Source: Acidobacteriota bacterium
GTDB taxonomy: Bacteria > Acidobacteriota > UBA6911 > RPQK01 > JAJDTT01
NCBI GenBank assembly: GCA_965263035.1
Contig: OZ253580.1
Span: 4,416,001 to 4,480,000, forward strand
Length of the DNA stretch: 64,000 bases
Direction: 5' to 3'
In this document: in pieces, positions 2,643-48,699 of the stretch
How the letters are laid out: each line of letters starts with the position of its first letter
Position numbering within the stretch: the first letter of the stretch is position 1
Notes under the pieces: generated by a model
What the model was told of the DNA's origin: nothing
The model's input: only the letters and a program-made list of their open reading frames with translations
The model's database searches: none
Made by a program: the position numbers and the translations under genes

Positions 2643-2695
2643 CCGTTCCTCCCCCTCACGTCGGCCCGCGTCGATTCGCGAGATACTACCATTTT

Positions 2696-2830
2696 GGGAA
2701 AGGAAAGAGGAAAGAGGAAAGAGGAAATGAGAAAAGAGTTAAGACGGAAGAAGCGCCCCCAAGTGGCCGGCGTCCGGCAACACGAACCCCTTTTCTTCAC
2801 TCTTTCCTATTTCCTCTTTTCTCTTTCCTC
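2696..2830. repeat. imperfect inverted repeat made of GAGGAAA / TTTCCTC heptamers
   Basis: Purine arm gaggaaagaggaaagaggaaatgagaaaagagttaaga (~2700-2743) is near-complementary to pyrimidine arm tcttcactctttcctatttcctcttttctctttcctc (~2794-2830). Confidence 0.8.
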
Positions 2831-2878
2831 GCTCGTAGTAGACTTGGGCCGCAACGGCAAAAGGAGGTCGGGAGTCCC

Positions 2879-5204: not shown

Positions 5205-5247
5205 ACTTTTCTTCGCTCTTTCCTCCTTTTCTCTTTCCTCTTTCCTC
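5205..5247. repeat. TTTCCTC heptamer tract (same family as 2696-2830)
   Basis: tcttcgctctttcctccttttctctttcctctttcctc matches the pyrimidine arm at 2794-2830. Confidence 0.7.
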
Positions 5248-6779: not shown

Positions 6780-6801
6780 GAGGGGCGACTTCCAGTCGCC
6801 C
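6780..6801 (+). repeat. REP-like hairpin directly after stop codon
   Basis: GGGCGACT-TCC-AGTCGCCC; a related hairpin follows the xerC stop at 63283-63307. Confidence 0.5.
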
Positions 6802-6872
6802 TCTTGGGGAGCATAGGGGGGACGATAGTCTCCACTTCGCGATTGCTGCGTAATCGATTTGAGGGCCGTGCC

Positions 6873-7065
6873 ATAGAAATCGCACCCATCAGGACCGACC
6901 GAGATTTCCGCCGGACGCTCAAGGAGATCGAAGGCCTGATGACCGCTGAGCGCGGCACGCCCGAAGGCGACCGGCTGGAACTTCTGGTAACGTTGGTCGA
7001 GGCTTGGGAGGCGCGCAATTTTCCTCTTGATCTACCCGAGCCGATCGCCGCTGTCCGCTACCACT
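6873..7065 (+). pseudogene. truncated HigA-type antitoxin / HTH regulator N-terminus
   Basis: Frame reads (I)EIAPIRTDRDFRRTLKEIEGLMTAERGTPEGDRLELLVTLVEAWEARNFPLDLPEPIAAVRYH, the typical N-terminal half of this family. ATA sits where ATG is expected after GAGGG, and the HTH half is missing. Confidence 0.75.
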
Positions 7066-7083
7066 CAGGGAGGAATTCGAAAA

Positions 7084-31326: not shown

Positions 31327-31424
31327 GTCATCCTCCTTGGGTCGCCTCGGTATCCCACGGCCGCCGAATTCCCCGGAACCGAACGGAGGATCGCTCCCGG
31401 AATCCGGACACACGGCCGCGTGGT

Positions 31425-32924: not shown

Positions 32925-33116
32925 GGGGTTCCTCCGTCCCAGATCTTGGGTTTTGCCACCCAGTCTACTACGCTGCCGACACGCTCCGCCACGGTCCCCG
33001 ACAGGTCCTCGCGATGGGCCGGCGGCAGCTCGGCCGGAGCCGGCCGGTCACCGGAGTCGAGGATGGGATCGCGAACGACATGCTTGGTTGTTAAGCTAAA
33101 CCAAAGACAACAGAAA

Positions 33117-36100
33117 TTGAAAAAACGGCCCGAGGTCGGTCTACTCGTCGCAATCGTCTGCCTCGCCGCAATCAGTGCTCCCGTCGCCGCGCAGCAGCAG
33201 TTCGGCGGTCTCCGTGTCCTCGTCACCGACCAGACCGGTAGCGTCATCCCCGGCGCCGAAGTCGAGTTCGGCGGCAAGGTGTTGATCCGGCCGGTCTTTG
33301 GGGTCTCCGACGATCACGGATTGGTGATCAGGAACAGCCTTCCACCCGGAAACTACACGGTAACCGTCCGATTCCCGGGGTTCCAGACTGCAGTGAATGA
33401 AGAAGTCGTCGTCCAGGCGGGACGGATTTTTTCGGTTGAGATAGCTCTCAAGGTCGGTCAACTCGACAGTACGATCGTCGTCGAGGCAGGCCAAGCGGCG
33501 ATCGATACGTTCAAGAGCGAGTCCGCGGCGACGTATGCCGGGCAAGGGATAACGGACGCCCCCGGCGGTCGAGACTTCAGCGACTACGCGCGCTTTACGC
33601 CGAGCGTCAACATCGAAGCCCAGGCGGGCAACGTGACCTACAGGGGACAGAGTGTCCGTGGCATCTCCGTCGACGGGTCCTCCGGCGCGGAGAACGTCTT
33701 CTACATCGACGGTGTCGATACCACGAGCATGTACAACGGGTTGAACAACCAGAATCTACGGGTCGAAACGGTGCAGGAGTTCCAGTTGAAGACGGCCGGG
33801 TACGAGGCCGAATTCGGCGGCGCCATGGGGGGCGTGCTCAGCATCCGGACCAAGAGCGGATCGAACGACTTTCACGGCAGCGTTCTGTGGTACGGGAGTG
33901 GAAGCGCCTTGGCGGGTGCGCCGAGCAAGCGTCTGCGCCTGGACCCGGCCCAGTCCGCCGACGTGGCCGAATACGTGTTCGACGCCGAAGACGATGAGGC
34001 GATCAACGAATTCGGCTTCACCTTGGGGGGGCCGATCTGGCGCGACCGCATCTGGTTCTTCGGGGCGCTCCTGCCGCAAATCCGAAACCGGACGCGCTCC
34101 GTCACCTTCACATCCGGGGAAACGGGCGATTTCAGACGCCAGGACCGGTTGCGCAGCACGACCGCCAAGATCGACTTCCAGCCTGCGGATAAAGTGAGAT
34201 TCATGACCTCGTACGTTTCGGACCGGTCGCGATGGAAGGGTGGATTGCCCGATCGCGACGGTACCTCCAACCCGAATTACGAGTGGGCGGAAGAAGGGTT
34301 CGAACATCCCGGCTACACGGTGACGGGAGCCCTGACCGTCACCCCGTCTCCGGTTTCGATCGTGGACGCCCGTTGGGGATTGAACGCCATCCAGACCGAA
34401 CAACTGCTGGGGCCGAACCAGGTCCGTCACCGGTTCCTCCAAACGCCGGGAGTGATCGGATATTCGCCGGACGACCCCCTGTATCGGCCACGCGACTTCT
34501 CCTCGATCGGACACTCGGCAAGCTACAATACCTCCCAGGATTTCCAGAAAAAGAGCACCATATCAGTCCGTGGTGAAAGTCCCGCGAGCACCGAGACCGG
34601 TCCTGCGCCCGCCGGACAAGGCGCGATGAGGGAGCATACCGGGAGTATGAGACCGAGTCGCAACGCAGTCCGCGCACGATGCAGGGAAGGTCGAATGCCG
34701 TGACGACTTTTGCCACGGGCTGATATCTCTGAGTGGGAGTTATCTGGCCACCCTGGCAGGCCAGCAGCATGAGGTGCGCGTCGGCTGGCAGTTCAATGGG
34801 CTCGCCCACGACGTCAACGACGCCTACAAGTTCGACTACATCCTGTACAACTACACCCGCCCCTACAACACCGTGGACGGGAACGTCCGGACCAGCACCT
34901 GCACGGGTCCGGACGGCGTCCGTTACGATCCTTGCGGTTATTACGAGCTGCGCACGCCGTTCGGCGTCGTGGCGAACGTCGTTACGCACCGCCATGCCCT
35001 TTTCTTCCAGGATGCCTGGACCATCAACGGTTCGCTCACCCTGAACCTCGGACTTCGCTTCGAGCACGAAGAGATCCCCTCCTTCAGCGATCTTCCGGAG
35101 TTTTCCGGAACGGTCTTCAAGTGGGGCTTCCTGGACAAGGCCGCGCCTCGTCTGGGCTTTGCCTATGACCCACTCGGTAACGCGAAGGTCAAGCTCTTCG
35201 GTAGTTGGGCCCGGTTCTACGACGCCATGAAACTCGAGATGGCCAACGGATCGTTCGGCGGGTTCAAATGGTTGAGCCATTACTACCTGATGGACGACAC
35301 CACGCTCGATTGGACCCGAATCGGAGGGCTGTCGGGACAAGGGGAATATCCTGGAACTTTCGTCGAGACCAGGAACTGGCGACTCCCGTCATTCGAGGAC
35401 CTGGACCCCGATCTGAAACCCATGCGGATGACGGGAGTCGTGGCCGGGGTCGAGTACGAGGCCGCGACGGACTATGTGGTTTCGGTCCGGTACACGCGAA
35501 AGAATCTGGATGAGGCGATCGAGGACGTCGGCCGGCAGACACCGGCGGGTGAGGCCTACTACATCACCAACCCGGGGCGCGGCCTTTCCGTCGACCGTTT
35601 CCTGGAAGCGGGACTGCCGGTTACCCCCCATCCCAAGCGAACCTACAACGCGGCCGAATTCCGCTTACGGAAATCCATCCGAGACCATTGGTTCGCGGAT
35701 GTCGCGTATGTGTATTCCCGGCTTTACGGCCTCTATTCAGGCTTGGGAAGCTCCGACGAGAACGGACGCCTCAGTCCGAACGTCGACCGCGATTTCGATC
35801 TCTGGTTCCTCAACTACGACTCCGCCGGCAACCTGATCGATGGACCGCTGGGCACCGACAGAACGCACCAGCTCAAGGTCAATTGGATGGTCCTCACTCC
35901 GTGGGACATGGCTGTGAGCGGTTTCTTCCGCGCCATGAGCGGAACGCCCGTCACCCGGACCGTCGATCTGGAACACGTGGACGTCATGGTGAACAACCGC
36001 GGCAGCGACGGACGAAACCCGTTCTGGACTCAGACGGACCTCTCACTGGTCCAGCGCTTCTACCCTTTCCCGGATGAAACCAGATCGTTCGAGATCAACT

Positions 36101-36333
36101 TCAACGTCATCAACCTCTTCAACCAGAAGACGGGCTTGCGGACATTCCGAAGCCTGTACCGCCAGTCCCTTCCCTTGTGGCAACCCGGCGATCCCGTCTC
36201 GCAAGTCCTGAACGGCTACGACTATCGCGCCATAGCCGCCTCCCAGGGCGCGACCCAGGATCCTCGCTTCCTGCAGCCGGACCGGTTCCTGGATCCAGTT
36301 GCGGCACGCTTCGGAGTTCGTTTCGTCTTCTGA
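33117..36333 (+). pseudogene. Oar-like TonB-dependent receptor interrupted by a 159-bp element
   Basis: N-terminal part has a CarboxypepD_reg-like domain, plug ENVFYIDGVD and YEAEFGGAMGG. C-terminal part has FFQDAWTI...LNLGLRFE, APRLGFAYD and terminal RFGVRFVF. Removing 34560-34722 joins ...[28 protein letters not shown] in frame. Confidence 0.9.
34564..34722 (+). mobile_element. 159-bp palindromic MITE, family A (ERIC-like core)
   Basis: Terminal inverted repeats CAGTCCGTGGTGAAAGTC / GACTTTTGCCACGGGCTG; ATAT target duplication at 34560-34563 and 34723-34726; second copy inverted at 48363-48521. Confidence 0.92.
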
Positions 36334-36338
36334 CCTGG

Positions 36339-36497
36339 GAGCCTGCGCGGCAGAAATTGATCTACTGCGAAAGCGGTAGAATCGGTCCATATTTCCCCGA
36401 TTTCTCGGCGAATAGAACAACTATGCACCTCCAAATCGAGAAAATCTGGCCTCGATTCCCCTCTTTCTCGCTACGATCATTCTTACCGCGCAGACTC
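36339..36497 (+). mobile_element. 159-bp palindromic MITE, family B
   Basis: Ends GAGCCTGCGCGGCAGAAAT / ATTCTTACCGCGCAGACTC with CTAG-like flanks; near-identical copy at 43039-43197. Confidence 0.88.
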
Positions 36498-36563
36498 TTA
36501 GTGTGTCCTCCGGTGTGAAATGCGGGCTGGAATGAGCAATTTTGGACGGAGCATGAAGGTCGC

Positions 36564-36710
36564 ATGACTTGTCCGCGCTGCCGCACCAAGATGACGGTCG
36601 CCGCCCATCGGCCTCACAAGCAAGAGAAGTGGCGCTGCCCCAAGTGCGGCAAGGTGCGGATGAAACCGGCCAGCTACCGCCGATCCAAGTACGGCAAACG
36701 AGAGGCCTGA
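36564..36710 (+). CDS. 48-aa basic zinc-ribbon microprotein
   Basis: Below ORF-track cutoff. MTCPRCRTKMTVAAHRPHKQEKWRCPKCGKVRMKPASYRRSKYGKREA* has two CxxC motifs; GAAGGT upstream. Confidence 0.6.
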   Translation: MTCPRCRTKMTVAAHRPHKQEKWRCPKCGKVRMKPASYRRSKYGKREA

Positions 36711-36793
36711 GCGCCGGACGGCAGGCAAAAAAGCGGGTTCAGGCCCGTGGTCCATCGCGTCCGGCCGCCGAGGGCCTTGATCCGCTCCGCCCG

Positions 36794-38284
36794 CTATTTA
36801 ACTCCGGCGGCCAGCCACCGGATCGGTCGGGCGCAGATCAGGAACAGGGCCCCGGCCACGATCGAGGTGACGGCGACGCTGAAAAACAGCTCTTCAGCGG
36901 TCATGGTCTCGAGTCGGCCGGACATGAGCCCGGCGATGAGATTCCCCAGGGCGGCTCCCATGAACCAGGTTCCCATCATCTGCCCCACGAGACGCGTCGG
37001 CGAGAGCTTGGTGATGCTGCTCAACCCGACCGGGCTGAGGCAGAGTTCCCCCACGGTGTGAAAAAAGTAGGTCGTCACCAGCCACACGGGGCTCACCTTG
37101 CCCGCCGCGATGAATTGGGAGCCCCAGGCCATGACGAAAAAACCCGCTCCGAGCAGTACGAGCGCGAAGGCGAACTTGACTCCAAGCGACGGGTTCCTCG
37201 ACCCGAGACCGACCCACAGCATTCCCATCAAGGGCGCCAACAGGACGATGAACAGGGGATTGACCTGCTGCAGCCAACCGGCGGGAAACTCCCAGGAGAG
37301 GATCACCAGGTCGGTGTGTTCCTTGGCGAAGAGATTCATGCTGGATCCGGCCTGCTCGAAGCCGGACCAGAACAGCGCGGCTCCGATGAAGAGGACGAAG
37401 ATGAGGCCTACCCTCCGCCTCTCCAGGCTGTCTCTGCAGGCGAACAGGATGACGTAGCTGAAATAGAGGACGGCCAAGACCGAAATCGAAAGCGAGACGG
37501 TTCGGGCCACGGCCTCGACGGTGAGCGTCAGGAGCCCGGCCGAGGTCAGAGCGGCGAGAGCCAGTGCCGCGGCAGCCACCACTCCCAGACCCCTCAGGAA
37601 CTGGCCGCGAGACCGGGCCTGCGCCTGGAGACTGGACGCATCCCCCTTGAGTTCACCGGCCCCGTCCAGATGCCGCCGTCCCAGCACGTACTGCAGCACG
37701 GCGAAGGTCATGCCCACGCCGGCGGCGCCGAAACCCAGATGCCAATCCACCTTCTCGCCCAGGAACGAGCAGATCCCCGGCCCCAGGAAGGCTCCGACGT
37801 TGATTCCCATGTAGAAAATGGTGAAACCGGCGTCCCGCCGAGCGTCGTTTCCCGTATAGAGGTCTCCGACGATGGCGCTGACGTTGGGTTTCAACAGACC
37901 GGTGCCCAGGGCCACCAGGGCCAACCCCACGTAGAACGTGACCTCGGCCGGAATCGCCAGCGCATAGTGGCCGGCGGCGATGATGATGCCTCCCACCAGG
38001 ACGGCGCGGCGCTGGCCGATGAGCCGGTCCGCCACCCATCCTCCGGGGAGAGCCAGCGCGTAGACTCCGAAGGTATACAGACCGTAGATCGCGCCCGCCT
38101 CGGCCTTGCCCATGCCCATCCCTCCCCGGGCGCTGTCGATCATGAACAGGACCAGGAGGGCCCTCATTCCGTAGTAGCTGAAACGCTCCCACATCTCGGT
38201 GAAGAAGAGGGTCGAGAGCCCTCGGGGATGACCGAAAAAAGTCTGCGGCCGGCGATCGCCGCCGGGTGTCTGCGATGGGTCCAT
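36794..38284 (-). CDS. POT/PTR family proton-dependent oligopeptide MFS transporter
   Basis: GHPRGL...FFTEMWERFSYYGMR (ExxERF), GTGLLKPN, FYMGINVG, GELCLSPVG. Confidence 0.95.
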   Translation of the reverse strand: MDPSQTPGGDRRPQTFFGHPRGLSTLFFTEMWERFSYYGMRALLVLFMIDSARGGMGMGKAEAGAIYGLYTFGVYALALPGGWVADRLIGQRRAVLVGGIIIAAGHYALAIPAEVTFYVGLALVALGTGLLKPNVSAIVGDLYTGNDARRDAGFTIFYMGINVGAFLGPGICSFLGEKVDWHLGFGAAGVGMTFAVLQYVLGRRHLDGAGELKGDASSLQAQARSRGQFLRGLGVVAAAALALAALTSAGLLTLTVEAVARTVSLSISVLAVLYFSYVILFACRDSLERRRVGLIFVLFIGAALFWSGFEQAGSSMNLFAKEHTDLVILSWEFPAGWLQQVNPLFIVLLAPLMGMLWVGLGSRNPSLGVKFAFALVLLGAGFFVMAWGSQFIAAGKVSPVWLVTTYFFHTVGELCLSPVGLSSITKLSPTRLVGQMMGTWFMGAALGNLIAGLMSGRLETMTAEELFFSVAVTSIVAGALFLICARPIRWLAAGVK

Positions 38285-38312
38285 GGAGACCTCCATACTC
38301 ACGTCTGCGGGA

Positions 38313-39272
38313 TCAGCGAACGGCGATGGGATTTCCCGGGGATCCGGTGGCTCCCTTCAGGCGAAGCGGGGAGAAGACGAAGGCGAACTCGTAGACCTTG
38401 TCCCGCGCCAACTCCTCCAGCGTGAGATTTTCCAGGTTGTAGATCCCGTGGCGCACCAGCATCCACTGATGCACCTCGAAGGGCCGGTCCGGATTCTCGT
38501 GCGGGACCACCTCGATGGCCCAGTTGTCGGCTCCGGTCAGGACCGTTTTCCGGCTGCTGAGCCAGCGGGCCGCCTCCATGCCGATTCCCGGCTCACCCGA
38601 GTTGTACAGGTCGTTGTCCCGCATCCACAGCTTCTCGTGTCCGGTGCGGATCAGGACCGCGTCCCCTTCTCGGACTTCCACGCCCTGTTTCTTCAGAGCT
38701 CCCTGCAGGTCGTCTGCGGTGATGACGTATCCCGGCTGCAGTCGGTCCACGCCCTTGAATGAGGCCACGTCGATGAGGACCCCGCGGGTAAAGAAGACGC
38801 CCACGTTCTCTACGCCCAGCTTCGTGAGCCCGTAGGGAGTGGCGAACCGGGACCGCTTGAAACCGTTATAGAAGTAGTCGTCGTCGGCCAGTCGAACTCC
38901 GACATGGCCGAGTCCGTCGAACTGAGTTCCGACCTGACCGATCTCGCCGCTGAACATCTCGTCGAAACCCACGAGCCCGTTCGATCCGGTCGGGTCGCCC
39001 GAAGTGGGAGATCCTGGGATCGTGAGCTTGAAATGCCGCTTGCCCGCCAGCGGCATCCCTTCCTGGTAGACCTGACCCAGCGAGTAGATCTTGCCGGTGC
39101 GGATGAGCCGGCTGGCTTCCAGGACTTTGGCCGGGGTGATCCGGTTGGCGGCGCCGCGTTGATCCGCGGTGCCCCACTCGGAAGGCCACCAGCGGGAGCC
39201 GATGGGTGTCTCCTGGGGCCAGGCAACCGACTGCATGGACCAGCAGAGCGCTATGAACCCGATGAGCCTCAT
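38313..39272 (-). CDS. cyclase family (kynurenine formamidase-like) metal-dependent hydrolase, secreted
   Basis: WGTADQRGAAN, GTQFDGLGH, GDAVLIRTG, GADN, LENL, GATGSP. Confidence 0.88.
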   Translation of the reverse strand: MRLIGFIALCWSMQSVAWPQETPIGSRWWPSEWGTADQRGAANRITPAKVLEASRLIRTGKIYSLGQVYQEGMPLAGKRHFKLTIPGSPTSGDPTGSNGLVGFDEMFSGEIGQVGTQFDGLGHVGVRLADDDYFYNGFKRSRFATPYGLTKLGVENVGVFFTRGVLIDVASFKGVDRLQPGYVITADDLQGALKKQGVEVREGDAVLIRTGHEKLWMRDNDLYNSGEPGIGMEAARWLSSRKTVLTGADNWAIEVVPHENPDRPFEVHQWMLVRHGIYNLENLTLEELARDKVYEFAFVFSPLRLKGATGSPGNPIAVR

Positions 39273-39309
39273 GGTTTGTCTCTCCCTCGTGTCATGGCCG
39301 GCTTCCGAA

Positions 39310-40425
39310 TCAATTCGTTTCCGTCGGCTCGGAGAGACCGGCATTCAGGGCCGGAACCACTTCCCGAGCCAGGAGTTCCACACTCCGGATCCAGCTCTCC
39401 TTGTCGTCCCAGTCGTGGGCTACCAGGATCAGAGTCCCAAAGCCGCCGACTTCGTCTCTCAACTCCCGGAGCATCTGCGTGACCCGGGACGAATCCCCCG
39501 CGATCACCACCTCGTCCAGGAAATAGTCCAGATTGCAATCGGCGTCGCTCATGGACGGATCCCGTTTCCAGATTCCCACGCCGGGACCCCTCCGGGTCAG
39601 CTCCAGAATGTATTCGATGCATTTCCCCATGGAGTTGCCGGCGGCCAACCGGCGAGCTTCTTCGGTCGTTTCGGCCACAAACACGTTGCGGGAGACTCTC
39701 CAGTCGCTGATCCGTGCCCGGCGGCCGTGTTGGCGAGCGCCCGATTCGTAGGTCGACCAGTGGTTCCGCAAGGTGTCTGTCGACACCATGTGGTGGCTGA
39801 TGGGAAGAAAACCACGGCCGGCCGCTTTCTGGACGCCGACCGAGTCGCGGCTGATGCACGGGACCATAATGGGCGGGTGGGGCCGCTGCAGCGGTCGGTG
39901 CAGGACGCCGACGCCCATTTCGGGGTCGATTTGCTCGGAAAGGCGGAAATCCCAGAACTTCCCATGGAACTCGATGGGCGGGTCCTGGCTCCAGATTCTC
40001 AAGATGGCCTCGATGGCTTCGGAAACCAGACCGCCGGATTGCCGGGGATCGACGCCGTAGATCTCCATATCGCTGGGAATCGCTCCGGGACCGAAGCAGA
40101 GATTGAGGCGCCCGTGGGACAGGTGATCCAGAAAGGCCAGGCGCGAGGCGACGTGTGCCGGGTGGTGGTATTGGAGGCAGACCGGCGCCGGTCCGATCCG
40201 GATCCGGGAGGTCATTCCCAGCGCCTTGCCGATGAAGATCTCGGGCATGACGATGTTCTCCACGCTGGAGGAATGATGTTCTCCTACCCAGAACTCGGAA
40301 AATCCCAGCTCCTCGCATCGCACGACCAGTTCAAGGTCCTCGTCGAAGCATTGGGCCAGAGGCTTATCCGGATCGTGCACGGGCATGAGGAACATCCCCA
40401 GCTTGAGGGATGGCTGATGGGGCAT
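39310..40425 (-). CDS. LLM-class flavin-dependent monooxygenase
   Basis: KLGMFLMP.H, WVGEHHS, LDHLSHGRL, PLQRPHPP. Confidence 0.9.
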   Translation of the reverse strand: MPHQPSLKLGMFLMPVHDPDKPLAQCFDEDLELVVRCEELGFSEFWVGEHHSSSVENIVMPEIFIGKALGMTSRIRIGPAPVCLQYHHPAHVASRLAFLDHLSHGRLNLCFGPGAIPSDMEIYGVDPRQSGGLVSEAIEAILRIWSQDPPIEFHGKFWDFRLSEQIDPEMGVGVLHRPLQRPHPPIMVPCISRDSVGVQKAAGRGFLPISHHMVSTDTLRNHWSTYESGARQHGRRARISDWRVSRNVFVAETTEEARRLAAGNSMGKCIEYILELTRRGPGVGIWKRDPSMSDADCNLDYFLDEVVIAGDSSRVTQMLRELRDEVGGFGTLILVAHDWDDKESWIRSVELLAREVVPALNAGLSEPTETN

Positions 40426-40652
40426 GGCGGGATCCTTTCCTGAATCGGGGCTCGTCATGGGCCTGGTCCTCGTGTCGCCAATCAGGATGGGCGCGATCGG
40501 GGGCAGAGTCAACGAGCCCCTCCAGGTCCCGAGTTGCACCTCGACCTTGGGAACGAATAACATTATGCAAGGTTTCCGAAGAGACAAGATAGCCTTGTCC
40601 CGGGTGGAAGCGAGTTCGGCGCCGCGACCGGCAGTGGCACAAGCGTGATGCG

Positions 40653-41747
40653 ATGATGTGGCACCTGATTCTCTCCAATCTCCGCCAGCGGCCGACCCGC
40701 ACCTGCGTCAACATCATGGCCGTTTGCCTGGGAGTGGTTCTGGTTCTGGTCTGCGTCGGACTCTCCTACGGCCAGTTGCTGGATCAGGCGCAACGGACCC
40801 GCCGTATCGGAGGGGACTTCATGCTCCAGCCTCCGGACGCCTCCTTTTTCCTGGCGCTCAACAGCGGCGCCATGGACGTCAGGATCGGACGCGTCATCGA
40901 TAAGGTGGATGGGGTCGAGGCCTCGACTCCGATCATGGTCAAGGTTGTCAGCAGGAACTTCTTCGCGGTTTACGGCGTGGACGCGTCCAGCTTTCAGAAT
41001 GTCAACGACGGGCTGAGGTTCGTCCAAGGCCGGTTTTTCGAGTCAGGGGACGAAGCCATCGTCGACGAACTCTTCGCCTCCAACAATCAGATGGACGTCG
41101 GACAGGACGTCGATCTCCTGGGGCACCGGTTCAAGATCACCGGGATCTTCCAGAGGGGAACCGCCGGCCGGGCCATGATTCCCCTCGAGACCATGCAGAA
41201 GATCAACGGAACTCCGGGCAAGTGCTCGGTCTTCTTCATCCGGGCTGAGGATGGGAAGCCCCACGATCAGGTTCGAACGGCGCTGGACACCCGTTTCGAG
41301 AATTACAGGGTCACAGCTACCGAAAATCTGGAACAACTCTTCACTACGACCACACCCGTTTTCCGCGAATTCCTCCTGGTGATCGTCGCGCTGGCCGTGG
41401 CCATGAGTTTCCTGGTGACGCTCACGGCCACTTACAGCACCATCGTGGAGAGGACCCGGGAGATCGGCATCCTCAAATCTCTTGGCGCCTCCAAGTCCTA
41501 TATCGTCCGCCTCTTTCTCGAGGAATCCCTGCTGGTCTCGGTGTTGGGCCTGATCTCCGGTTTCATCCTGACCTGGGGAGTCCTCAGCCTGATTGCCGTC
41601 AAGTTCCCCTCCTTGCCGGTGATTATCCAGCCCTACTGGAGAGTGGCGGTGGTGGGGATTTCGATGGGCGGAACCGTGTTGGGAGCCCTCTACCCGGCGT
41701 GGAAGGCCGCCAAGCTGGACCCGGTCACGGCTCTCGGTTACGAGTAG
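40653..41747 (+). CDS. MacB/FtsX-type ABC transporter permease
   Basis: ERTREIGILKSLGAS...EES, YPAWKAAKLDPVTAL. Confidence 0.92.
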   Translation: MMWHLILSNLRQRPTRTCVNIMAVCLGVVLVLVCVGLSYGQLLDQAQRTRRIGGDFMLQPPDASFFLALNSGAMDVRIGRVIDKVDGVEASTPIMVKVVSRNFFAVYGVDASSFQNVNDGLRFVQGRFFESGDEAIVDELFASNNQMDVGQDVDLLGHRFKITGIFQRGTAGRAMIPLETMQKINGTPGKCSVFFIRAEDGKPHDQVRTALDTRFENYRVTATENLEQLFTTTTPVFREFLLVIVALAVAMSFLVTLTATYSTIVERTREIGILKSLGASKSYIVRLFLEESLLVSVLGLISGFILTWGVLSLIAVKFPSLPVIIQPYWRVAVVGISMGGTVLGALYPAWKAAKLDPVTALGYE

Positions 41748-41823
41748 CGCCCCTTCATCGGGGAACACCGCCCGCCTCGGATGGTTCTCCCCAGCTTTGA
41801 GAAACAGCCGCCGAACAGATCCG

Positions 41824-42984
41824 TCAAATCAATTCGGTTTCGACGTCCCGAGCCGGACTGGCTGAGTAGCGGCAGGCAATCTCGTCTACGATCCGGACCA
41901 TCCGCTCATGGTGCTCCTCCATGGATTCCACCACTTTGAACTGGGCACGGCAGCGATCCAGGTTCTGGCCCTCCCGGTGGACCTTGAAATAGACGTCCCC
42001 TTCCAAATGGTCGGTGAGGAAGCGGAGTCCCAACTCGTAAGCGATGAGCTTTCCCGAGAAGGGGAGATATTGTCGCTCCACAGGAGTGAGGAAGCCGACG
42101 GTCTCCGAAAGGTACCCGCGAGCGAGAGCCTTGAAGTGAGGCAACTCGACACCCACTCTCGAGAGGTCGCGCTCGTCTTCCTGATGGGTTCCGCAGCCGC
42201 TGCGCATCAGGTCTCCGAAATCATGATCGGACAGGCCGGGCATGACCGTGTCCAGGTCGATGACGCAAAGCATCTTGCCGGTCATCGCGTCCAAGAGGAC
42301 GTTGTTGATCTTGGAGTCGTTGTGAGTGACCCTCTCGGGTAGCCGTCCCTGTTCCCGCAGGCGGGGCAGGACCCGGATCAGCCGCTTGGAGGAGTGGGCG
42401 AAGCGGATCTGCTCCTGGACTTCCCGGGCTCGATTGCAAGGGTCCCGGTCGAGCGCCGAAAGGAACTGCCGGTAACGGTGCTCCGTATCGTGGAAGCCGG
42501 GTATGGTTTCGACGAGGCGCGGGGACGGTAGATCCAGGAGAAGTTTCTGGAAACGCCCGAAGGCGCGACCTGCTTCATAGGCGATCCGGGGAGAGGTGAC
42601 GGTGTCGAAGATCGAGGCGCCCTCGACGAAGTCGTAGGTGCGCCAGTAATTTCCCTCGGCATCTCGATGGAAGCTGGACCCGTCGTTTGTCGGCACCAGA
42701 GACAGGGAGCGGCGCCCCACATCCTCAGCTCCCGCCTGCCGCAGCTTGTGCTCGAGATGCCGGGTGACCCTTACAATGTTCTTCATCAGGGCGGGCGGGT
42801 TCCGGAAGACTCTCTGGTTGATCCGCTGGTGAACGTAGCGTTTCCACCGGCCGCGATGCCAATAGCTGGCCAGGTAGGTGTCATTGATGTGGCCGTTCCC
42901 ATAGGGATGGATCCGGACCAGGTCGCCGCGCACAGAAAAACAAGAGCTGACGGCCGCGAGATCACCTTGGTGCTGCCGGTTCAT
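41824..42984 (-). CDS. aminoglycoside phosphotransferase family kinase (N-acetylhexosamine-1-kinase-like)
   Basis: GNGHINDTY, QRIN, THNDSKINN, VIDLDTVMPG, RFLTDHLEGD.YFK. Confidence 0.88.
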   Translation of the reverse strand: MNRQHQGDLAAVSSCFSVRGDLVRIHPYGNGHINDTYLASYWHRGRWKRYVHQRINQRVFRNPPALMKNIVRVTRHLEHKLRQAGAEDVGRRSLSLVPTNDGSSFHRDAEGNYWRTYDFVEGASIFDTVTSPRIAYEAGRAFGRFQKLLLDLPSPRLVETIPGFHDTEHRYRQFLSALDRDPCNRAREVQEQIRFAHSSKRLIRVLPRLREQGRLPERVTHNDSKINNVLLDAMTGKMLCVIDLDTVMPGLSDHDFGDLMRSGCGTHQEDERDLSRVGVELPHFKALARGYLSETVGFLTPVERQYLPFSGKLIAYELGLRFLTDHLEGDVYFKVHREGQNLDRCRAQFKVVESMEEHHERMVRIVDEIACRYSASPARDVETELI

Positions 42985-43038
42985 TCCTGCGCCTTTCATG
43001 AGAGGCCGCGGCAATCGCCATGAATTCGGGGATTCCAG

Positions 43039-43197
43039 GAGCCTGCGCCGCAGAAATTGATCTACTGCGAAAGCGGTAGAATCGGTCCATATTTCCCCGA
43101 TTTCTCGGCGAATAGAACAACTATGCACCTCAAAATCGAGAAAATCTGGCCTCGATTCCCCACTTTCTCGCTACGATCATTTCTACCGCGCAGACTC
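43039..43197 (+). mobile_element. 159-bp palindromic MITE, family B (second copy)
   Basis: Near-identical to 36339-36497; flanks CCAG / CTAG. Confidence 0.88.
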
Positions 43198-43225
43198 CTA
43201 GCGCTGACGATCCTGAAGGCATGGG

Positions 43226-43420
43226 CGAGAGAGAGGAAAGAGAAAAGAGGGGAGAGGAAAGAGAGAGGAGAGGTGTTCGCACAACGGGGAAGAGCGCGAG
43301 AAAACGATCTGGCCGGGTACGCTCAGGCAAGCCTGGCTCGACGCCCTGTTTCTCCAATGACTTCGCTGGCTGCAGGCAAGTAGGAGACCTTCCGTCTTCA
43401 CTCTTTCCTCTTTCCTTCCT
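43226..43420. repeat. GAGGAAA / TTTCCTC heptamer inverted-repeat element
   Basis: Purine arm 43226-43273 and pyrimidine arm cttccgtcttcactctttcctctttcc (~43389-43420), sharing the tcttcactctttcct motif with 2794-2808. Confidence 0.7.
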
Positions 43421-44871
43421 CACAAGGGATAGACACGGCGGCCCAGCCGCTCGTATTTGAGGGCGTCCGGACTGTGCACTCCCGGCTCCGATACGGCCTG
43501 GATCTGACCGGCCCATGCTTCGAAGCCAGCCCGGAAGTGCGCAGCCGATTTCAAGCCGATGTATCGCATTTGCCTGGGATCGAGCCCCAAAGTCAGCGAA
43601 AAGGCGGTGTCGAAGGGCTGCTCCCGGACACTGACCAGCAGCACGTGGACGCCGTCGACTCGGATCCGGGCCGAGACTCCCATATTTCCACGGAGACCGG
43701 CGTACATGGGACCGTTGTAGGCGAATGCTCCGTCAGAAACAGCTTCGACTACGGCCTCCACGGGGACCGGCGGCCCCTGTCTGGGCGTCGATTTCCCGCC
43801 AACCTGGAGCGATACGGTGGCGCCGACACCGGCGCGATGACAAGCCAGCACGGATTCGTGATCCACGATGTAGAGGATGCAGGCATCCTTGAGCCCAGAG
43901 TCCAGAAAGGTTCTGAGCATGCCGGTGCTGTCCCCCGGAGAACCGCCGCCCGTATTGTCGTTTCTGTCCGCGAAGACCGCGGGATATCGGCCCAACATCT
44001 CCGCCTTGGCCAGGGCTTCCCGGGTCGAGGGGAGATGCTGTTGCCAATCGGCCCGGCGGCGATAGATCCACGCCGCCAGTTCGTCGGCGTGGCGTTGAGC
44101 CGAGGCGCGGTCGTTGTCCGTGACCACGTGTACCGAGGCCCCCACGTGGGGTGCGTCAGCCAAGGGAAAACAGGTGGCGATGGATGCGGCCACGACGCCC
44201 GGTTCGGCCTCCAATCGGTGCAGGCGCTCGATGGCTTCGCTCATGGGCGGGTGTGCGGTCACCTGGTTCAGACCCCAGAACATGGGGATCTGGGACAGGG
44301 CCATGGTGGGACGGAGACCGTCCCTGACGATCCGGACCATCACGTCAGCGCACTCCCGGCCCCGCGCCGCCATGTCCACCTCGGGGTAGGTTTCTCGTCC
44401 GATGAGGGCGTCGGCCAGTTCGACCATGCGGTGCGAGACGTTGGAGTGGATGTCCAACTGTCCGACGATGGGAACCTCCGGGCCCACCAGATCTCGAACC
44501 GCCGCCAGGATGTAGGCCTCGCCGTCGTCGATGCCTTCGGCCACCATGGAGCCGTGGAGCTCCAGCAGGATCCCGTCCGCCGGAGACGCGGCCTTCATCA
44601 GACCCAACATCCGGTCCAGGAGGCGGTCCAGGTCTCGCCTGGGGACGGGGCCGCTGGGATGGGCTTCGGCGAAAATGGTAGGCACCAGCTCGAAGCCGTG
44701 TGCTTCAGCCGCCTCGATGAAACCGCCGGTGGGAATGTTGACACCCCGAAACGCCGGGATGATCTGGTCGGGTTGAAGCTCCCCGAATCTCTCGCTGAAG
44801 CTCTGCATGGTGGTGGGAATGGGAGTGAAGGTGCTGGTTTCGTGGCTGATGGTGCCGCTGAGGATCTTCAT
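43420..44871 (-). CDS. M81 family metallopeptidase (MlrC-like)
   Basis: SHETSTF, LELHGSMV..DDGE, LDIHSN, TYPEVD, DNTGGGSPGD, KSAAHFRA. Confidence 0.92.
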   Translation of the reverse strand: MKILSGTISHETSTFTPIPTTMQSFSERFGELQPDQIIPAFRGVNIPTGGFIEAAEAHGFELVPTIFAEAHPSGPVPRRDLDRLLDRMLGLMKAASPADGILLELHGSMVAEGIDDGEAYILAAVRDLVGPEVPIVGQLDIHSNVSHRMVELADALIGRETYPEVDMAARGRECADVMVRIVRDGLRPTMALSQIPMFWGLNQVTAHPPMSEAIERLHRLEAEPGVVAASIATCFPLADAPHVGASVHVVTDNDRASAQRHADELAAWIYRRRADWQQHLPSTREALAKAEMLGRYPAVFADRNDNTGGGSPGDSTGMLRTFLDSGLKDACILYIVDHESVLACHRAGVGATVSLQVGGKSTPRQGPPVPVEAVVEAVSDGAFAYNGPMYAGLRGNMGVSARIRVDGVHVLLVSVREQPFDTAFSLTLGLDPRQMRYIGLKSAAHFRAGFEAWAGQIQAVSEPGVHSPDALKYERLGRRVYPL

Positions 44872-45012
44872 CGGATCAGTCTCCACTCATGCCGTGATCT
44901 GTCCGCGGCCGATCGGAATACCCTGGTTCCGCGTGCGATCTGTAAATTCAAGATCATCATTCCATAAAGGTCTGATAGACACGGCCGGCCTGAATCGGCG
45001 AGGTGTCGGATT

Positions 45013-45036
45013 GTGACGACTTTTACCACGGACTGG
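45013..45036 (+). repeat. solo right end of MITE family A
   Basis: gtgacgacttttaccacggactg matches the 3' terminus of 34564-34722. Confidence 0.7.
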
Positions 45037-45048
45037 TAAACTCCAGGA

Positions 45049-45822
45049 GTGTTGCGAATTCATAGAGCCAGTCGCCTCCTGAAAGCGCGGGGAATTCGCG
45101 TCGGATTCGGATGGGTCTTATTGTGGCTCCTGCTGACTCCCCCGCAGACTCGTGCAAGCGATTGGTTTGCCGTGTTCAACGGAGAGAATCTGGAGGGGTG
45201 GGAGTCCGTCGGGTCGGGCCTCTGGAACCCCACTCCCGAAGGCTATCTGCTGGGCCAGTGGGACCCCTTCGATCTGCCCGATCCCGAACCCTGGCTCAAT
45301 GGGCTGAAGGGGCGTCTGAACCGCTCCCGGTTCAAGACCGATTTCAAGGTCGTCATCAACCAGGCCTGGCTCTATACCCGCCGGGAATTCTACGAATACG
45401 ACCTTCATCTGGAGTGGAAGGTCCCCCCGGGCGGCAACAGCGGCATTGCATTGCACGATCCGAGCCGGGGGCGCTATACGTCCGGTCCCGAGGCCGACCT
45501 TGCCCGAACCCCGTCCCAGATCGCCTACGAAGTCCAGATCGTCAATCTGGACGTGGAGCAGGATCCCACGGGGAGCATCTACATGGTCCAGTCGGCACGC
45601 GAGGACTTCCGAAATGAGGATGACTGGAACGTGTTCGACATCGAGGTTCGGCGGGGATTGATTCGGGTCCGCCTCAACGGACACCTGGTCACCGAGGGAA
45701 CTCCGATTCCCGGACGTCCCGAATCAGGACCCATCGGCATCCAACTCCACGATCCCGCCAGCGTCATTCTGTTGCGGGACATCCGGATTCGAGAGCTGAC
45801 CCCGGCCACGACTCGCGAGTAA
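45049..45822 (+). CDS. DUF1080 (3-keto-disaccharide hydrolase-like) domain protein
   Basis: FNGENLEGW, LEWK...GNSGI, YEVQI, TGSIY, WN, GPIGIQLH. Start codon uncertain. Confidence 0.87.
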   Translation: MLRIHRASRLLKARGIRVGFGWVLLWLLLTPPQTRASDWFAVFNGENLEGWESVGSGLWNPTPEGYLLGQWDPFDLPDPEPWLNGLKGRLNRSRFKTDFKVVINQAWLYTRREFYEYDLHLEWKVPPGGNSGIALHDPSRGRYTSGPEADLARTPSQIAYEVQIVNLDVEQDPTGSIYMVQSAREDFRNEDDWNVFDIEVRRGLIRVRLNGHLVTEGTPIPGRPESGPIGIQLHDPASVILLRDIRIRELTPATTRE

Positions 45823-45833
45823 CGTCTGCCCGT

Positions 45834-46589
45834 TCAATGGGCCAGATACCCGCCGTCAATGGGCAGCGCCAGGCCGTTGACGTAGGCAGCGGCGTCGCTA
45901 CAGAGCCACACGGCCGCTTCCGCAATCTCGTCCGGAGTCCCGAATCGAGCCATGGGGATAAATTGCGCCATGCGCTCCGACCGTTCGGGGTCGGCCCCCA
46001 GCAGCCGATCGGTCATCGGTGTCTGGATGGCTCCCGGACAGAGCGCGTTGATCCGGATCCCTTTGGCTCCGTACTCGACGGCGGCGGTCCTGGTCAGGCC
46101 GAGCACTCCGTGCTTGCTGGCGATGTAGGCGGACATGCCGCCCCGGGAGCCGACCAGGCCGGCGGTCGAGGAGGTGTTGACGATGGCCCCTTTGCCCTGT
46201 TTCAGCATCTGGCGCAACTCGTACTTCATGCAGAGCCAGGTCCCCTTGAGATTGACCTGGATGATCCGGTCCCACACCGTATCCGGGTACTCGTGCAATC
46301 GGGCGATGGCACCCTCGATGGCCGCATTGTTGAACCCGCAATCCAGCCTTCCATAGAAGTCGACAGCCTTCCGGATCAGGTGCTCGACCTGAGACGTGAC
46401 GGAGATGTCGGCCTGGATGAAGGTCGCCGGCGTCGGCATCATCTGCACGGTTTCGGCGCCTTTTCCCGGGTCGACATCGGAGACGACGACTCTGGCTCCG
46501 GCGCGGGCGAAGGCCAGAGCGGCGGCTCGACCGATTCCGGAACCGCCTCCGGTCACCAGGGCGACTCGGTCTCGAAGTGAATTCTTCAT
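45834..46589 (-). CDS. SDR family oxidoreductase
   Basis: ALVTGGGSGIG, FNNAA, YIASK (YxxxK), IRINALCPG, DGG. Confidence 0.93.
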   Translation of the reverse strand: MKNSLRDRVALVTGGGSGIGRAAALAFARAGARVVVSDVDPGKGAETVQMMPTPATFIQADISVTSQVEHLIRKAVDFYGRLDCGFNNAAIEGAIARLHEYPDTVWDRIIQVNLKGTWLCMKYELRQMLKQGKGAIVNTSSTAGLVGSRGGMSAYIASKHGVLGLTRTAAVEYGAKGIRINALCPGAIQTPMTDRLLGADPERSERMAQFIPMARFGTPDEIAEAAVWLCSDAAAYVNGLALPIDGGYLAH

Positions 46590-46697
46590 CGGGATCCGGC
46601 CTCCGTTGTGGCAGGGCGCCAAGTCTCTCACACTTTTCCCGAGCCCACATGCGCGTTGGCGACAGGGATGGAGCGGTTCTTTGGTACACTCCGGAGC

Positions 46698-48362
46698 ATG
46701 ATTCGATCCGCACGTGGATTCGGTTTCCCGGTGCCGGCCTTGATTCTGCTTGCCCTCGCGGCCGGAAGCATGCGGGGTCAGGATGGGCCCACCGGTGCGG
46801 ACTGGCCCCACTATGGCGGGAGCTACCAATTCTGGCGCTACAGCACCCTGGACCAGGTGAATCAGAAGACGGTGAAGAGACTGGTTCCGGTCTGGGCCTT
46901 CCAGACCGGAATCGTGGACGGCGGACTTCAGGCCACCCCCATCGTTCTGGACGGAGTCATGTATCTGACCTCGTCCTGGAACCGCGTCTTCGCCATCGAC
47001 GCCGCGACTGGCGAGGAGATCTGGCACTACTACTACGAGAACCCCCGGCAGATCGGGGTCATCTACAGCCCCTGGAACCGCGGCGTCGCGGTCTCGGGGC
47101 CGCGCGTCTTCATGGGGACTCTCGACAACCATGTCGTGGCCCTGGATCGGAAGACGGGCCGCGAGTTGTGGAAGGTCAACGTCGAGGATCTGAGACAGTG
47201 CGGCTGCAACATCACCGGGGCGCCGCTTGTGGTGAAGGACAAAGTGATCGTCGGCGTCACCGGGGGGGATTCGGCTCACCGGGGCTATCTGACCGCCTTC
47301 GACGCAGCCACCGGACGCCTGGCTTGGCGTTTCTACACCATCCCCGGTCCCGGAGAGAAGGGGCACGAGACTTGGGAAGGAGACAGCTGGACGTACGGAG
47401 GCGGAGCGACCTGGATGACCGGTTCCTACGATCCCCAGTTGGACCTCCTCTACTGGGGAGTGGGAAATCCGGCGGCCGACTTCTACGGGGGAGACCGGCG
47501 GGGAAGCAACCTGTACACCGACTCCGTCATCGCCTTGGATCCGGACACGGGAGAGCTCAAGTGGTACCACCAGCAGATCCCCCACGACGTGTGGGACTGG
47601 GACGCAGCCTACGAGTGCGTGCTGCTGGATCTGAAAGTGAATGGGAGAGACCGGAAGCTCCTCCTGAACACCAACAAAGGGGGCTACACCTACGTGGTGG
47701 ATCGGACCACCGGAGAGTTCATCTCAGCCTGGCCGGTCGTGGAACATCTGAATTGGATCGAAGGGGTGGGTCCGAACGGTGAACTGATCGGCCGCAATGA
47801 GCCGGTTCTGGACCAGGCCAAACTGATCTGCCCTTCCATCGGCGGTGGCAGGCAGTGGAACCAGGGCGCCTATTCTCCGCGCACCGGGTGGTACTACACG
47901 ACCGGCATCGAATGGTGTCAGGAGGTGACGGCCCGGGAGGAGGAGCCTCAGGAGGGGATGAACTTTTTTGGAGGCGTCTTCGAGTTGAAGGCGACGCCGG
48001 AAGTCGACCATCATGGACATCTGGACGCCTACGATCCGCTGACGGGGAAGAAGCACTGGAGCTACCGGTCCCCTTATCCCTTTCTGGCTTCACAGCTGGC
48101 CACGGCCGGGGACCTGATTTTCAGCGGTGACGCGGAGGGTCTCTTCTTCGCCCTGGACGCCATGACGGGACGGAAGCTGTGGAGCTTTCAGACCGGGTCG
48201 GGGCACCGGGGCTCGGCCATCACCTACTCGGTGGCGGGACGCCAGTTTATCGCCACCCCGTCCGGCTGGGGGTCGGCGGTGGCCGGCATTCTGCCCCAGC
48301 TCTGGCCCGAGACGGAGGATTTTCGGGCCGGGTCCACACTCTTCGTCTTCGCCCTGCCTTAA
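46698..48362 (+). CDS. PQQ-dependent dehydrogenase-like protein (methanol/ethanol family fold)
   Basis: Signal peptide; DWPHYGG, QATP, GGATWMTGSYD, GVGNP, NLYTDS, PHDVWDWD, W-docking repeats. Confidence 0.9.
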   Translation: MIRSARGFGFPVPALILLALAAGSMRGQDGPTGADWPHYGGSYQFWRYSTLDQVNQKTVKRLVPVWAFQTGIVDGGLQATPIVLDGVMYLTSSWNRVFAIDAATGEEIWHYYYENPRQIGVIYSPWNRGVAVSGPRVFMGTLDNHVVALDRKTGRELWKVNVEDLRQCGCNITGAPLVVKDKVIVGVTGGDSAHRGYLTAFDAATGRLAWRFYTIPGPGEKGHETWEGDSWTYGGGATWMTGSYDPQLDLLYWGVGNPAADFYGGDRRGSNLYTDSVIALDPDTGELKWYHQQIPHDVWDWDAAYECVLLDLKVNGRDRKLLLNTNKGGYTYVVDRTTGEFISAWPVVEHLNWIEGVGPNGELIGRNEPVLDQAKLICPSIGGGRQWNQGAYSPRTGWYYTTGIEWCQEVTAREEEPQEGMNFFGGVFELKATPEVDHHGHLDAYDPLTGKKHWSYRSPYPFLASQLATAGDLIFSGDAEGLFFALDAMTGRKLWSFQTGSGHRGSAITYSVAGRQFIATPSGWGSAVAGILPQLWPETEDFRAGSTLFVFALP

Positions 48363-48521
48363 CAGCCCGTGGTAAAAGCCGCCGCGGCATTCGACCGTCC
48401 TTGCATCGTGCGCGGAATGCGTTGCGACTCGGTCACATACCCCCGGCATACTCCCTCATCGCGCCTTGTCCGGTGGGCGCTGGAACGGTCTCGGTGCTAG
48501 CGGGACTTTCACCACGGACTG
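48363..48521 (-). mobile_element. 159-bp palindromic MITE, family A (second copy, inverted)
   Basis: Reverse complement of 34564-34722 (about 90% identical by eye); TTAA duplication at 48359-48362 and 48522-48525; the left copy includes the dehydrogenase stop codon. Confidence 0.92.
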
Positions 48522-48597
48522 TTAACCCACGTTTCTGCCCAGGGAGCGTGATTATCACGCAGGACCGGTGAGGGCGCGCCAACTGCCGGCGGGCTAC

Positions 48598-48614
48598 CTA
48601 GGAGTCTGCGCGGT
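48598..48614 (+). repeat. solo end of MITE family B
   Basis: CTAG-GAGTCTGCGCGGT matches the family B terminus. Confidence 0.6.
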
Positions 48615-48699
48615 GAACACTCCGGTCTATTCAGGTCCCGACTCAGCGCTCAATCCGAGCGGCGCGCCGGGGCCCCTAAAGCAGCTTGTTCCGCACCCA

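Follow-up and report, generated by a model that had tools for sequence, protein, structure and literature searches.

Two high-copy MITE families with IS1182-type ends and predicted rod-like interiors in an Acidobacteriota genome, one with an ERIC-type core

Elements of the window and their copies in the genome

The window, a 64,000-nucleotide stretch of an Acidobacteriota genome, holds four 159-bp elements of two families, A and B, and a solo end of each. A TonB-dependent receptor-like gene on the forward strand (32907..36333) is split by the first family A element, A1 (34564..34722; + strand, folded strand +), through a frameshift: without A1 the gene reads as one frame of 1087 codons, and with A1 the first stop follows residue 598 (the true start is probably downstream of 32907). 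ATAT is duplicated on both sides of A1 (34560-34563 and 34723-34726), and the site is unoccupied in six of eight genomes of the same genus. The second copy, A2 (48363..48521; − strand, folded strand −), lies between duplicated TTAA, and a solo family A end of 23 bp lies at 45013..45035. Family B is represented by B1 (36339..36497; − strand, folded strand −; flanks CTGG/TTAG), which lies 5 nt past the stop codon of the receptor gene, by B2 (43039..43197; − strand, folded strand −; flanks CCAG/CTAG), and by a 13-bp solo end directly after CTAG (48602..48614, + strand). These positions agree with the original prediction, as do the CAG..CTG ends and 4-bp duplications of family A, the GAG..CTC ends of family B and a central hairpin with a 5-nt loop in each; the CTAG-like flanks described for family B are present and are not true duplications, and solo ends had been placed at 45013 and 48598. 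Contigs from two RNA-labelled runs contained no joint skipping A1 or B1, an absence that contigs cannot demonstrate. The 42-47-kb contigs in both runs suggest DNA in the libraries, and no expression levels can be derived from them.

Quantification across the genome revealed 162 near-full copies of family A and 164 of family B, as the solo ends had led the original prediction to expect. A and B are two separate high-copy MITEs with no direct similarity to each other (best blastn E 1.5; 48/159 ungapped), and both have type II MITE traits (<500 bp, non-coding, multi-copy, terminal inverted repeats). The claim that both are exactly 159 bp long held for all four window copies and for family B (157 of 164 copies) and failed for family A, where 159 bp was found in 32 of 162 copies beside 158 bp (42), 160 bp (60), 161 bp (20) and other lengths (8); the exact figure in the window's A copies is luck, and the size class is nonetheless real. 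Identical 4-bp flanks occur in 73 of 145 family A copies, compared with 10.4 when shuffled, and in 71 of 157 family B copies, compared with 55.5 (maximum 70), a signal that is weak in family B because CTAG dominates its flanks. Unoccupied 4-bp sites were found in relatives at 21 loci in addition to the A1 site. Insertions inside genes are few, 19 of 161 for A and 21 of 163 for B, although 88% of the sequence is called coding. Since 47 of the 164 family B copies have an identical partner copy, family B appears to have spread recently. Derivatives that keep both ends and lack the core make up 15 of 175 paired B ends and 2-4 of 158 paired A ends, a scarcity that fits the preferred reading below, although recent deletion alone may account for it. 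Natural core-less forms of 104 and 38 bp occur.

Several candidate patterns were dropped. In-frame selection of family A inside genes gave 11/19 versus 52/142 (p = 0.085). A preference of family B for a single orientation behind stop codons did not hold up (18:16). Target conversion at insertion seemed strong at first (mismatch 30% versus 9-10%) and was rejected, since the motifs CTAG and TTAA vary from one of these genomes to another in any case; of the identical-flank sites, 7 of 12 differ against 5.1 expected. Three 754-bp elements with A ends and the same flanks all lie inside one larger repeat and are not independent.

IS1182-type partners

The proposal that the ends are IS-derived (IS5/IS1182-like), and that an autonomous IS with matching ends should be sought, led to IS1182-type partners for both families. 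The partner of family B, a 1599-bp element (G000:203087-204685), is flanked by CTAG on either side and encodes a protein of 441 aa that scores 363 bits against the NCBIfam IS1182 cut-off of 270; the ends of the element share 13/14 and 15/18 bases with those of family B. For family A, an intact 1478-bp element with duplicated TTAA occurs in a congener (G005, locus L416) and matches the family A 3' end at 18/18 bases; its 454-aa transposase, with DUF772 and DDE domains, has IS1182 as its best family at 180 bits versus the cut-off of 270. Copies of the A partner in the source genome are all deleted or frameshifted. The transposases are apparently intact, one in the source genome and one in congeners.

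The overlap of each family with its IS is limited to 14-18 terminal bases, and the interiors of A and B matched neither partner. IS similarity is confined to the ends, and the interiors are not IS-derived. Type II MITEs are defined by IS similarity limited to terminal repeats (PMC10969869), and A and B resemble the type II MITEs of the IS1182 family in their end-only similarity, 4-bp targets and partner IS. They differ from these in that half of the copies have non-identical flanks and in that the interior is a conserved, covarying fold found across unrelated ends rather than decayed filler.

The predicted rod and the ERIC-type core

The original prediction described both elements as self-complementary rods, and the predicted folds were indeed stronger than those of shuffled sequence. 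A1 folded as the + strand gave z = −7.1 (opposite strand −2.9) and B1 folded as the − strand gave z = −8.8 (opposite strand −5.9), with 0 of 200 shuffles reaching either value. The internal stems also covary, as had been put forward for checking: double changes occur in 51 of 65 pairs among 30 B-class elements, where pairing holds in 94% of cells, a level that none of 500 shuffles attains and for which slid controls give 34-47%, and in 39 of 47 pairs among 16 A-type elements. Arms can copy each other without selection, as the near-perfect arms of loci L317 and L385 indicate, so this covariation is inflated.

Such copying is the basis of a neutral account, in which many IS ends captured one old palindrome, the compensatory changes arise when replication switches template between arms, and the tip is unselected. 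Visible arm homogenisation fits it, as does the patchy distribution of the core (9 of 301 genomes of the phylum), which suits horizontal spread of a few lineages, and so does the spread of family B despite loss of its inner ladder. However, arm copying should remove mismatches, whereas in fact the stems turn over and conservation is highest in the columns of unpaired purines. Non-standard tip positions also covary (n = 123: GGAG/TGAC 16, GGCG/TAAC 103, mixed 4), length is retained despite end swaps, and the AAGGC/AACGC loop described below is also found flipped. We therefore regard neutral inheritance as unlikely.

The stems contain frequent G·U pairs, which fit RNA no less well than DNA. This raises the possibility that transposases drive mobility and that the rod is selected as RNA, shielding upstream mRNA or avoiding RNase III or termination, with intact copies tolerated and becoming donors. 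Besides the G·U-rich, strand-specific fold, the many copies that follow or precede a stop codon at no more than 30 nt (at 65 gene ends in family A and 66 in family B) speak for it, as do reported effects of ERIC and Correia repeats on mRNA stability (PMC10969869, PMC2229807, PMC3184786). Against it, no consistent orientation was found relative to transcription or replication: between co-directional genes A leans antisense (36:53) and B sense (51:37), nothing being significant (p 0.09-0.36); relative to replication the counts are 77:84 and 90:73; and after stop codons family B splits 33:33. The lack of consistent orientation is easier to reconcile with an effect on the donor than with an effect on transcripts, and we consider selection as RNA possible but rather doubtful. 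Rfam gave 0 matches at E ≤ 5 in window positions 33000-50000; in 20 related loci it gave, apart from chance hairpins, a weak, below-threshold match of the Vibrio antisense RNA V_AS5 to ERIC, which also counts for the RNA account. An attC site, an SRP-like loop and a kink-turn were weighed as candidates by eye and set aside.

ERIC (IRU, RU-1), which we take to be MITEEc1_IS630, is a 127-bp repeat of Enterobacteriaceae and Vibrionaceae. In A1, the tip hairpin (34631..34653, + strand) reads GGAG-CATAC-loop-GTATG-AGAC, the last element being TGAC in the majority of family A, and a mirrored internal loop (34618..34666, + strand) places AAGGC (34618-34622) and AACGC (34662-34666) 8 nt either side of it. 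CAAGGCG and CAACGCAG were found in family A as had been described, in the order of the consensus printed in PMC2759123 Table 1a. With a core matrix built from ERIC only and a background of 12.3 million positions, family A scored a median of 26.2 bits, a value reached by 0 background positions; exact core matches number only 55 among ~162 copies, and AAGGC/CAGGC is polymorphic within the family. Family B was claimed to share the ERIC-like hairpin and does not: it scored −4.0 bits, as high as 19,030 background positions, and 0 of 164 copies have the plan GG[AC]G-stem-T[GA]AC. The window's GTATGAGAC is a rare variant, the majority form of the family being GTATGTGAC. The B1 tip (36404..36431, − strand) reads GAG-GTG-CATAG-loop-CTATT-CGCC-GAG. 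Of the two G·A tandems typical of its class it retains the outer and has lost the inner, whose G·A pairs are replaced by ordinary pairs (GGTG/CGCC).

A full-length model built from 15 ERIC-type copies returned 8 matches at E ≤ 10, none on A or B, contrary to the ERIC-model match that the original prediction had looked for; A and B are thus not ERICs. They resemble ERIC as rod-like, intergenic, high-copy, non-coding repeats, and family A further in its tip (GGAG-CNTAC-loop-GTANG-TGAC) and AAGGC/AACGC loop. Unlike ERIC, with its 127 bp and TA ends, they are 158-161 bp long with IS1182-type CAG/GAG ends and 4-bp YTAR-like targets; the loop lies 8 nt from the tip in A versus 20 nt in ERIC, and the family B tip has no counterpart. 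On balance, the observation behind the original prediction was partly confirmed and its interpretation partly supported.

A wider class and a possible role of the interior

The G·A-rich tip is shared with the ERIC repeat of E. coli and with repeats from about 12 phyla, and the family A tip (GGAG, 5-bp stem, loop, TGAC) recurs with the mirrored AAGGC/AACGC in about 12 phyla in covarying form. Of 103 distinct matches, 97 have a Watson-Crick pair at the free position of GGAGCNTAC/GTANGTGAC (A-T 40, G-C 30, T-A 26, C-G 1), with loops of 3-8 nt. AACGC, absent from the search pattern, is placed precisely at the mirrored distance in 27 of the 103, compared with 5-6 of 103 anywhere in control windows. 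A-type cores are carried by CAG-, GAG-, AGG- and TA-GTG-type ends. The family B interior occurs with other ends at loci L255 and L224, and several more end types appear in metagenomes, where 48 of 56 B-class elements with called ends are 158-161 nt long. These end swaps, with the covarying stems, bear out a broader class in which a conserved fold sits on differing IS-derived ends. Family B belongs, in degenerate form, to a widespread class of 158-161 nt with the same G·A plan and variable IS ends; its exact tip was found 0 times in metagenomes, and the plasmid collection gave no A or B match and one partial Pseudomonas match for the L255 element.

Of the proposed core shared by A and B, the ERIC core of A stood; the hairpin of B differs, and the link between them is indirect: it runs by way of the wider class of B and a family that bridges the two. 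The B-class model scores family A at 31-33 bits in register, which is no proof, since rod shape alone can score so (family B on the wrong strand, 36-38 bits). Within B-class tips GGAG/TGAC interchanges with GGCG/TAAC; a search of viral contigs for the GGCG/TAAC variant of the A/ERIC-type tip gave apparently chance matches and one ERIC variant, so this covariation is shown in the B class only.

Size clustering at the class level supports the predicted length constraint, with 159 as one length among several: the lengths of elements with the core group around 125 and around 159 nt, and two-arm forms of 271-282 nt occur. The ~125-nt elements (G325, G331, G333) have copy-specific self-complementary outer arms, are in some cases tandem and show no clear duplication, and adding two 18-bp ends to 123-125 nt comes close to 159. 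Both points would suit a folded rod that is mobilised as the substrate of some other enzyme, either a reverse transcriptase or one of the single-strand HUH type, with the IS ends secondary. This is improbable given that A and B end sharply in IS1182-type sequence, use 4-bp YTAR-like targets and have transposases that match.

Taking together the directly observed copy number, empty sites, end matches, covarying stems, strand-specific fold, purine-rich tip and size classes, the reading we prefer, at somewhat short of even odds (about 0.45), is that A and B are MITEs likely moved by IS1182-type transposases and that the predicted non-IS rod likely helps copying as folded single-stranded DNA. The transposases would act on the 14-18-bp ends. 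A 159-bp duplex is too short for easy looping, so one strand folding back would bring both ends together at a fixed distance, with G·A pairs keeping the folded strand stable while the palindrome stays imperfect. The near-invariant tip is a putative host-protein binding site. Once such an interior has acquired the ends of a transposase, that transposase could use it again, and this would account for a core common to ERIC and IS1182 elements. Against this reading, family B has spread recently without the inner G·A pairs, and the ERIC-shared part is thus not required in B.

More tentatively, and more probably wrong than right, ERIC would be one branch of a superfamily, so far unrecognised and spanning phyla, whose folded passengers are mobilised by capturing unrelated DDE transposon ends; A and B would be two of its lineages, each of which acquired a different IS1182 end within the same genome. 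The module would be ~125 nt, a G·A-ladder tip with an orientation-independent AAGGC/AACGC loop, and its fold would either act in cis during transposition or be bound by a conserved host protein. The movement of ERIC and other bacterial MITEs, and the reason for the conservation of their interiors, are long-standing questions; in 2007, transposase-driven movement was described as lacking experimental support (PMC2229807). With identifiable transposases and natural fold variants, the role of the interior in spread is directly testable. If the folded interior does control spread, many species-specific repeats would be united into one class and a new structured nucleic-acid motif, absent from Rfam, would be defined.

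Our literature search found no paper describing this shared class. Small structured repeats of similar size include RPE of Rickettsia (105-146 bp), YPAL/RU-2 (168 bp), Correia/NEMIS (104-157 bp), bcr1 (~155 bp) and CIR (~110 bp), which in the descriptions available to us, the sole basis of this comparison, are treated singly and with no shared core reported. Long stem-loops with A-G mispairs are listed among such repeats (PMC2229807, Table 1), and CIR and bcr1 are two-armed, as are the 271-282-nt relatives of A and B.

Two MITE families and their IS1182-type partners

The four elements lie where the original prediction had placed them (family A, CAG..CTG ends, 34564..34722 and 48363..48521 of the window; family B, GAG..CTC ends, 36339..36497 and 43039..43197); each is 159 bp long, with the predicted ends, flanks and hairpins all present. 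A single long rod fold beat shuffled sequences (z = -7.1 for A1 and -8.8 for B1, the first copy of each family; 0 of 200 shuffles were as good), and one strand folded better than the other (RNA parameters, means of 80 copies per family; A: -92 versus -78 kcal/mol; B: -88 versus -57 kcal/mol). In the host genome (G000) the window occupies C1:4416001-4480000. A blastn census of this genome revealed 162 near-full copies of family A and 164 of family B (aligned ≥140 nt), and by k-mer census the two are its largest repeat clusters. By a purpose-made hexamer gene caller 88% of the genome is coding, yet only 19 of 161 A and 21 of 163 B copies lie inside called genes, indicating that genes are avoided. 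A1 is one exception, as it frameshifts a TonB-dependent receptor-like gene; 6 of 8 congeners have no insertion at this position. Family A was present in 8/8 congeners, 0/6 sister-genus genomes and 1/26 others of the order, with near-identical copies at three Acidobacteriota loci (L131, L132 and L140), and family B in 14/14 family members, 5/26 others of the order and 11/301 genomes of a phylum sample. A small share of the window region is present in sponge metatranscriptomes.

An autonomous IS with matching ends, which the original prediction had proposed to look for, was found for family B in the host genome: a 1599-bp element with an intact IS1182 transposase and CTAG at both sides. The A ends are matched in the host genome by four defective elements, three of 754 bp that carry deletions and one of 1072 bp that is broken, and congeners hold intact 1478-bp elements (L405, L416) whose 454-aa protein has IS1182 as its best family at a score below the cut-off. 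The two partner transposases are similar only over a 114-residue stretch (31%). Because the IS-to-MITE match ends after 14–19 bases in both families, A and B are type II MITEs, in the sense given in the accessible text of PMC10969869. Judging from the end match, the targets and the empty sites, they would have been moved in trans by IS1182-type transposition. A and B are real and are two new MITE families, of a sort already known.

The 4-bp flanks are non-identical in half of the host genome copies (72/145 A; 86/157 B), despite rare substitutions inside the copies of only 0.4–1% per base. The closest A sisters share flanks in 18–29% of 34 pairs, versus about 7% (p = 0.005 in a nearest-neighbour permutation, which gave p = 0.076 for B). 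Of 9 mismatched sites, 7 have flanks that both differ from the empty allele, where 2.2 would be expected. There are hints here that IS1182-type insertion carries along donor flank bases, as piggyBac insertion does.

An ERIC-type core in family A

The ERIC motifs named in the original prediction are present in the consensus of PMC2759123 (Table 1a), with which an E. coli-type ERIC locus (L038) agrees by eye; L038 has a near-full-length match in 5426/5426 E. coli genomes. The predicted ERIC-like core (GGAG, 5-bp stem, loop, TGAC) was recovered in family A, whose copies score above all background under an ERIC-core matrix (9+9 core bases from 15 ERIC-type copies found by core pattern, and therefore narrow). 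A full-length ERIC model, one of the prediction's refutation checks, matches neither A nor B. Scanning genomes with the pattern AAGGC-N6-12-core gave at least 115 stretches, and the matches listed span about twelve phyla by record title (lower-rank names were assigned by us). Among the matches listed are 103 distinct core hits, of which 97 have a Watson-Crick pair at the unconstrained stem position; 27 carry AACGC precisely at the mirror distance (33 if a deviation of 2 nt is allowed) versus 5–6 in control windows, the 103 being mutually non-independent and including family A itself. A looser core scan of viral contigs yielded 70 distinct hits; 50 of these are paired, both halves of the loop occur in 16, and the remainder are partly chance. 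Separately, L038:102-225 matches the Vibrio antisense RNA V_AS5 (Rfam RF02818; E = 7e-8, below threshold), and RF02818 may be an ERIC-like repeat.

Family B and the wider structured class

The ERIC hairpin was not recovered in family B, contrary to prediction: under the ERIC matrix its tip scores as background. In diverged loci found by blast to B (L255 and L224), the B interior is bounded by different IS-type ends, and its tip reads GAG-GCG-AATAG-loop-CTATT-TAAC-GAG. A metagenome scan with this tip gave at least 120 stretches; in the 123 matches listed, the free tip positions read GGCG/TAAC in 103, GGAG/TGAC, the form carried by ERIC and family A, in 16, and mixed in 4. The matches listed comprise 116 distinct elements bearing several end types, and 48 of the 56 with called ends are 158–161 nt. 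A model built from 30 of these elements, complete and less than 92% alike, scores the window B copies at 118–120 bits and has strong covariation in the internal stems, as the original prediction had asked to see; in its alignment the A2 tip falls into register, carrying one pair more, the score itself not being decisive. A TA-ended family (L275, L293, L316, L375 and others) combines the B-type tip with the A-type AAGGC/AACGC loop at the A spacing.

In the shared tip plan, five pairs are followed by a G·U, then by a purine-rich tandem and, after one or two pairs, by a second G·A tandem; the window B copies have kept the outer tandem and lost the inner one. C·A may be able to replace A·G in sheared pairs. 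Since the relatives' tips, the model alignment and the TA-ended bridging family agree, family B is, judged by sequence, a degenerate branch of the class sharing the A/ERIC plan. The A/B interior belongs to a wider structured class, apparently undescribed, that includes the core of ERIC. The literature searched, as far as accessible, yielded no description of a core shared across MITE families; the supplementary MITE catalogue of PMC11602168 may hold A or B.

Length classes, selection and neighboring repeats

A length constraint is real, but the single value of 159 bp gave way to several size classes. In the host genome, family B measures 159 bp in 157/164 copies, and family A 158–161 bp in 154/162, exactly 159 in only 32. 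Ends called for 68 of 110 A-type cores put 24 at 119–129 nt, 28 at 153–179 nt (palindromic targets counted; 11 are family A and one is ERIC with flanking repeats) and 16 elsewhere, with only 2 of the 68 between 130 and 152 nt. Thirteen long A-type elements, chosen and trimmed by hand, measure 157–162 nt and represent no fewer than four end types. Elements with two arms also occur: those of 271 nt (L550-L558 in genome G029) have family A ends and are flanked by CTAG, those of 282 nt (L549-L557 in G016) have TA-GTG ends, and both have one core-like arm per strand and are alike in outline to CIR and bcr1. Chen and Shapiro reportedly likened CIR to ERIC/IRU in 2003, which would be a partial precedent. 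Core-bearing repeats of ~125 nt (L483-L494 in G325, with 362 first-look candidates; L520-L548 in G331 and G333; L495-L499) have outer arms that vary from copy to copy and remain self-complementary, without clear target duplication; their AAGGC/AACGC loop is found in either orientation.

Because the fold persists while stems and ends turn over, the A/B interior is likely under selection. A role of the core as a duplex operator was considered, and its variable loop length argues against this. The host genome copies have no consistent orientation relative to transcription or replication, which argues against a role needing the fold in host transcripts and favors an effect on the donor; for this reason our first choice is that the fold might act as single-stranded DNA on the donor element, with RNA second. 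A preference of B copies for one orientation behind stop codons was looked for and not found. Family B spread recently without the ERIC-shared tip; no other result speaks so clearly against that tip being essential in any way.

B copies also sit inside A copies (G000:3161708-3162031, 3245123-3245446 and 3755278-3755600 of the host genome), two of them at one and the same position within the tip that marks the CATATTCGACC subfamily of A, and A and B occur as end-to-end tandems. A third repeat, AT-rich and ~121 bp long (G000:1608390-1608523 and 8 similar), is bounded by GAGGCTGTCCGAGAAT, an end type that bears the B interior in L255. A ~690-bp repeat (G000:4022846-4023535 and 18 similar) we take, by its motifs, to resemble a group II intron 3' region. 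Purine/pyrimidine-tract repeats (GAGGAAA units) form inverted pairs at window positions 2689-2834, 5209-5247 and 43229-43428, and a 14-copy host genome family of about 160 bp has tracts of this type. Tandem paralogous gene blocks for exported proteins lie at 5272-8424 and 29899-32924, with spacings of 1825 bp and 1568 bp, respectively.
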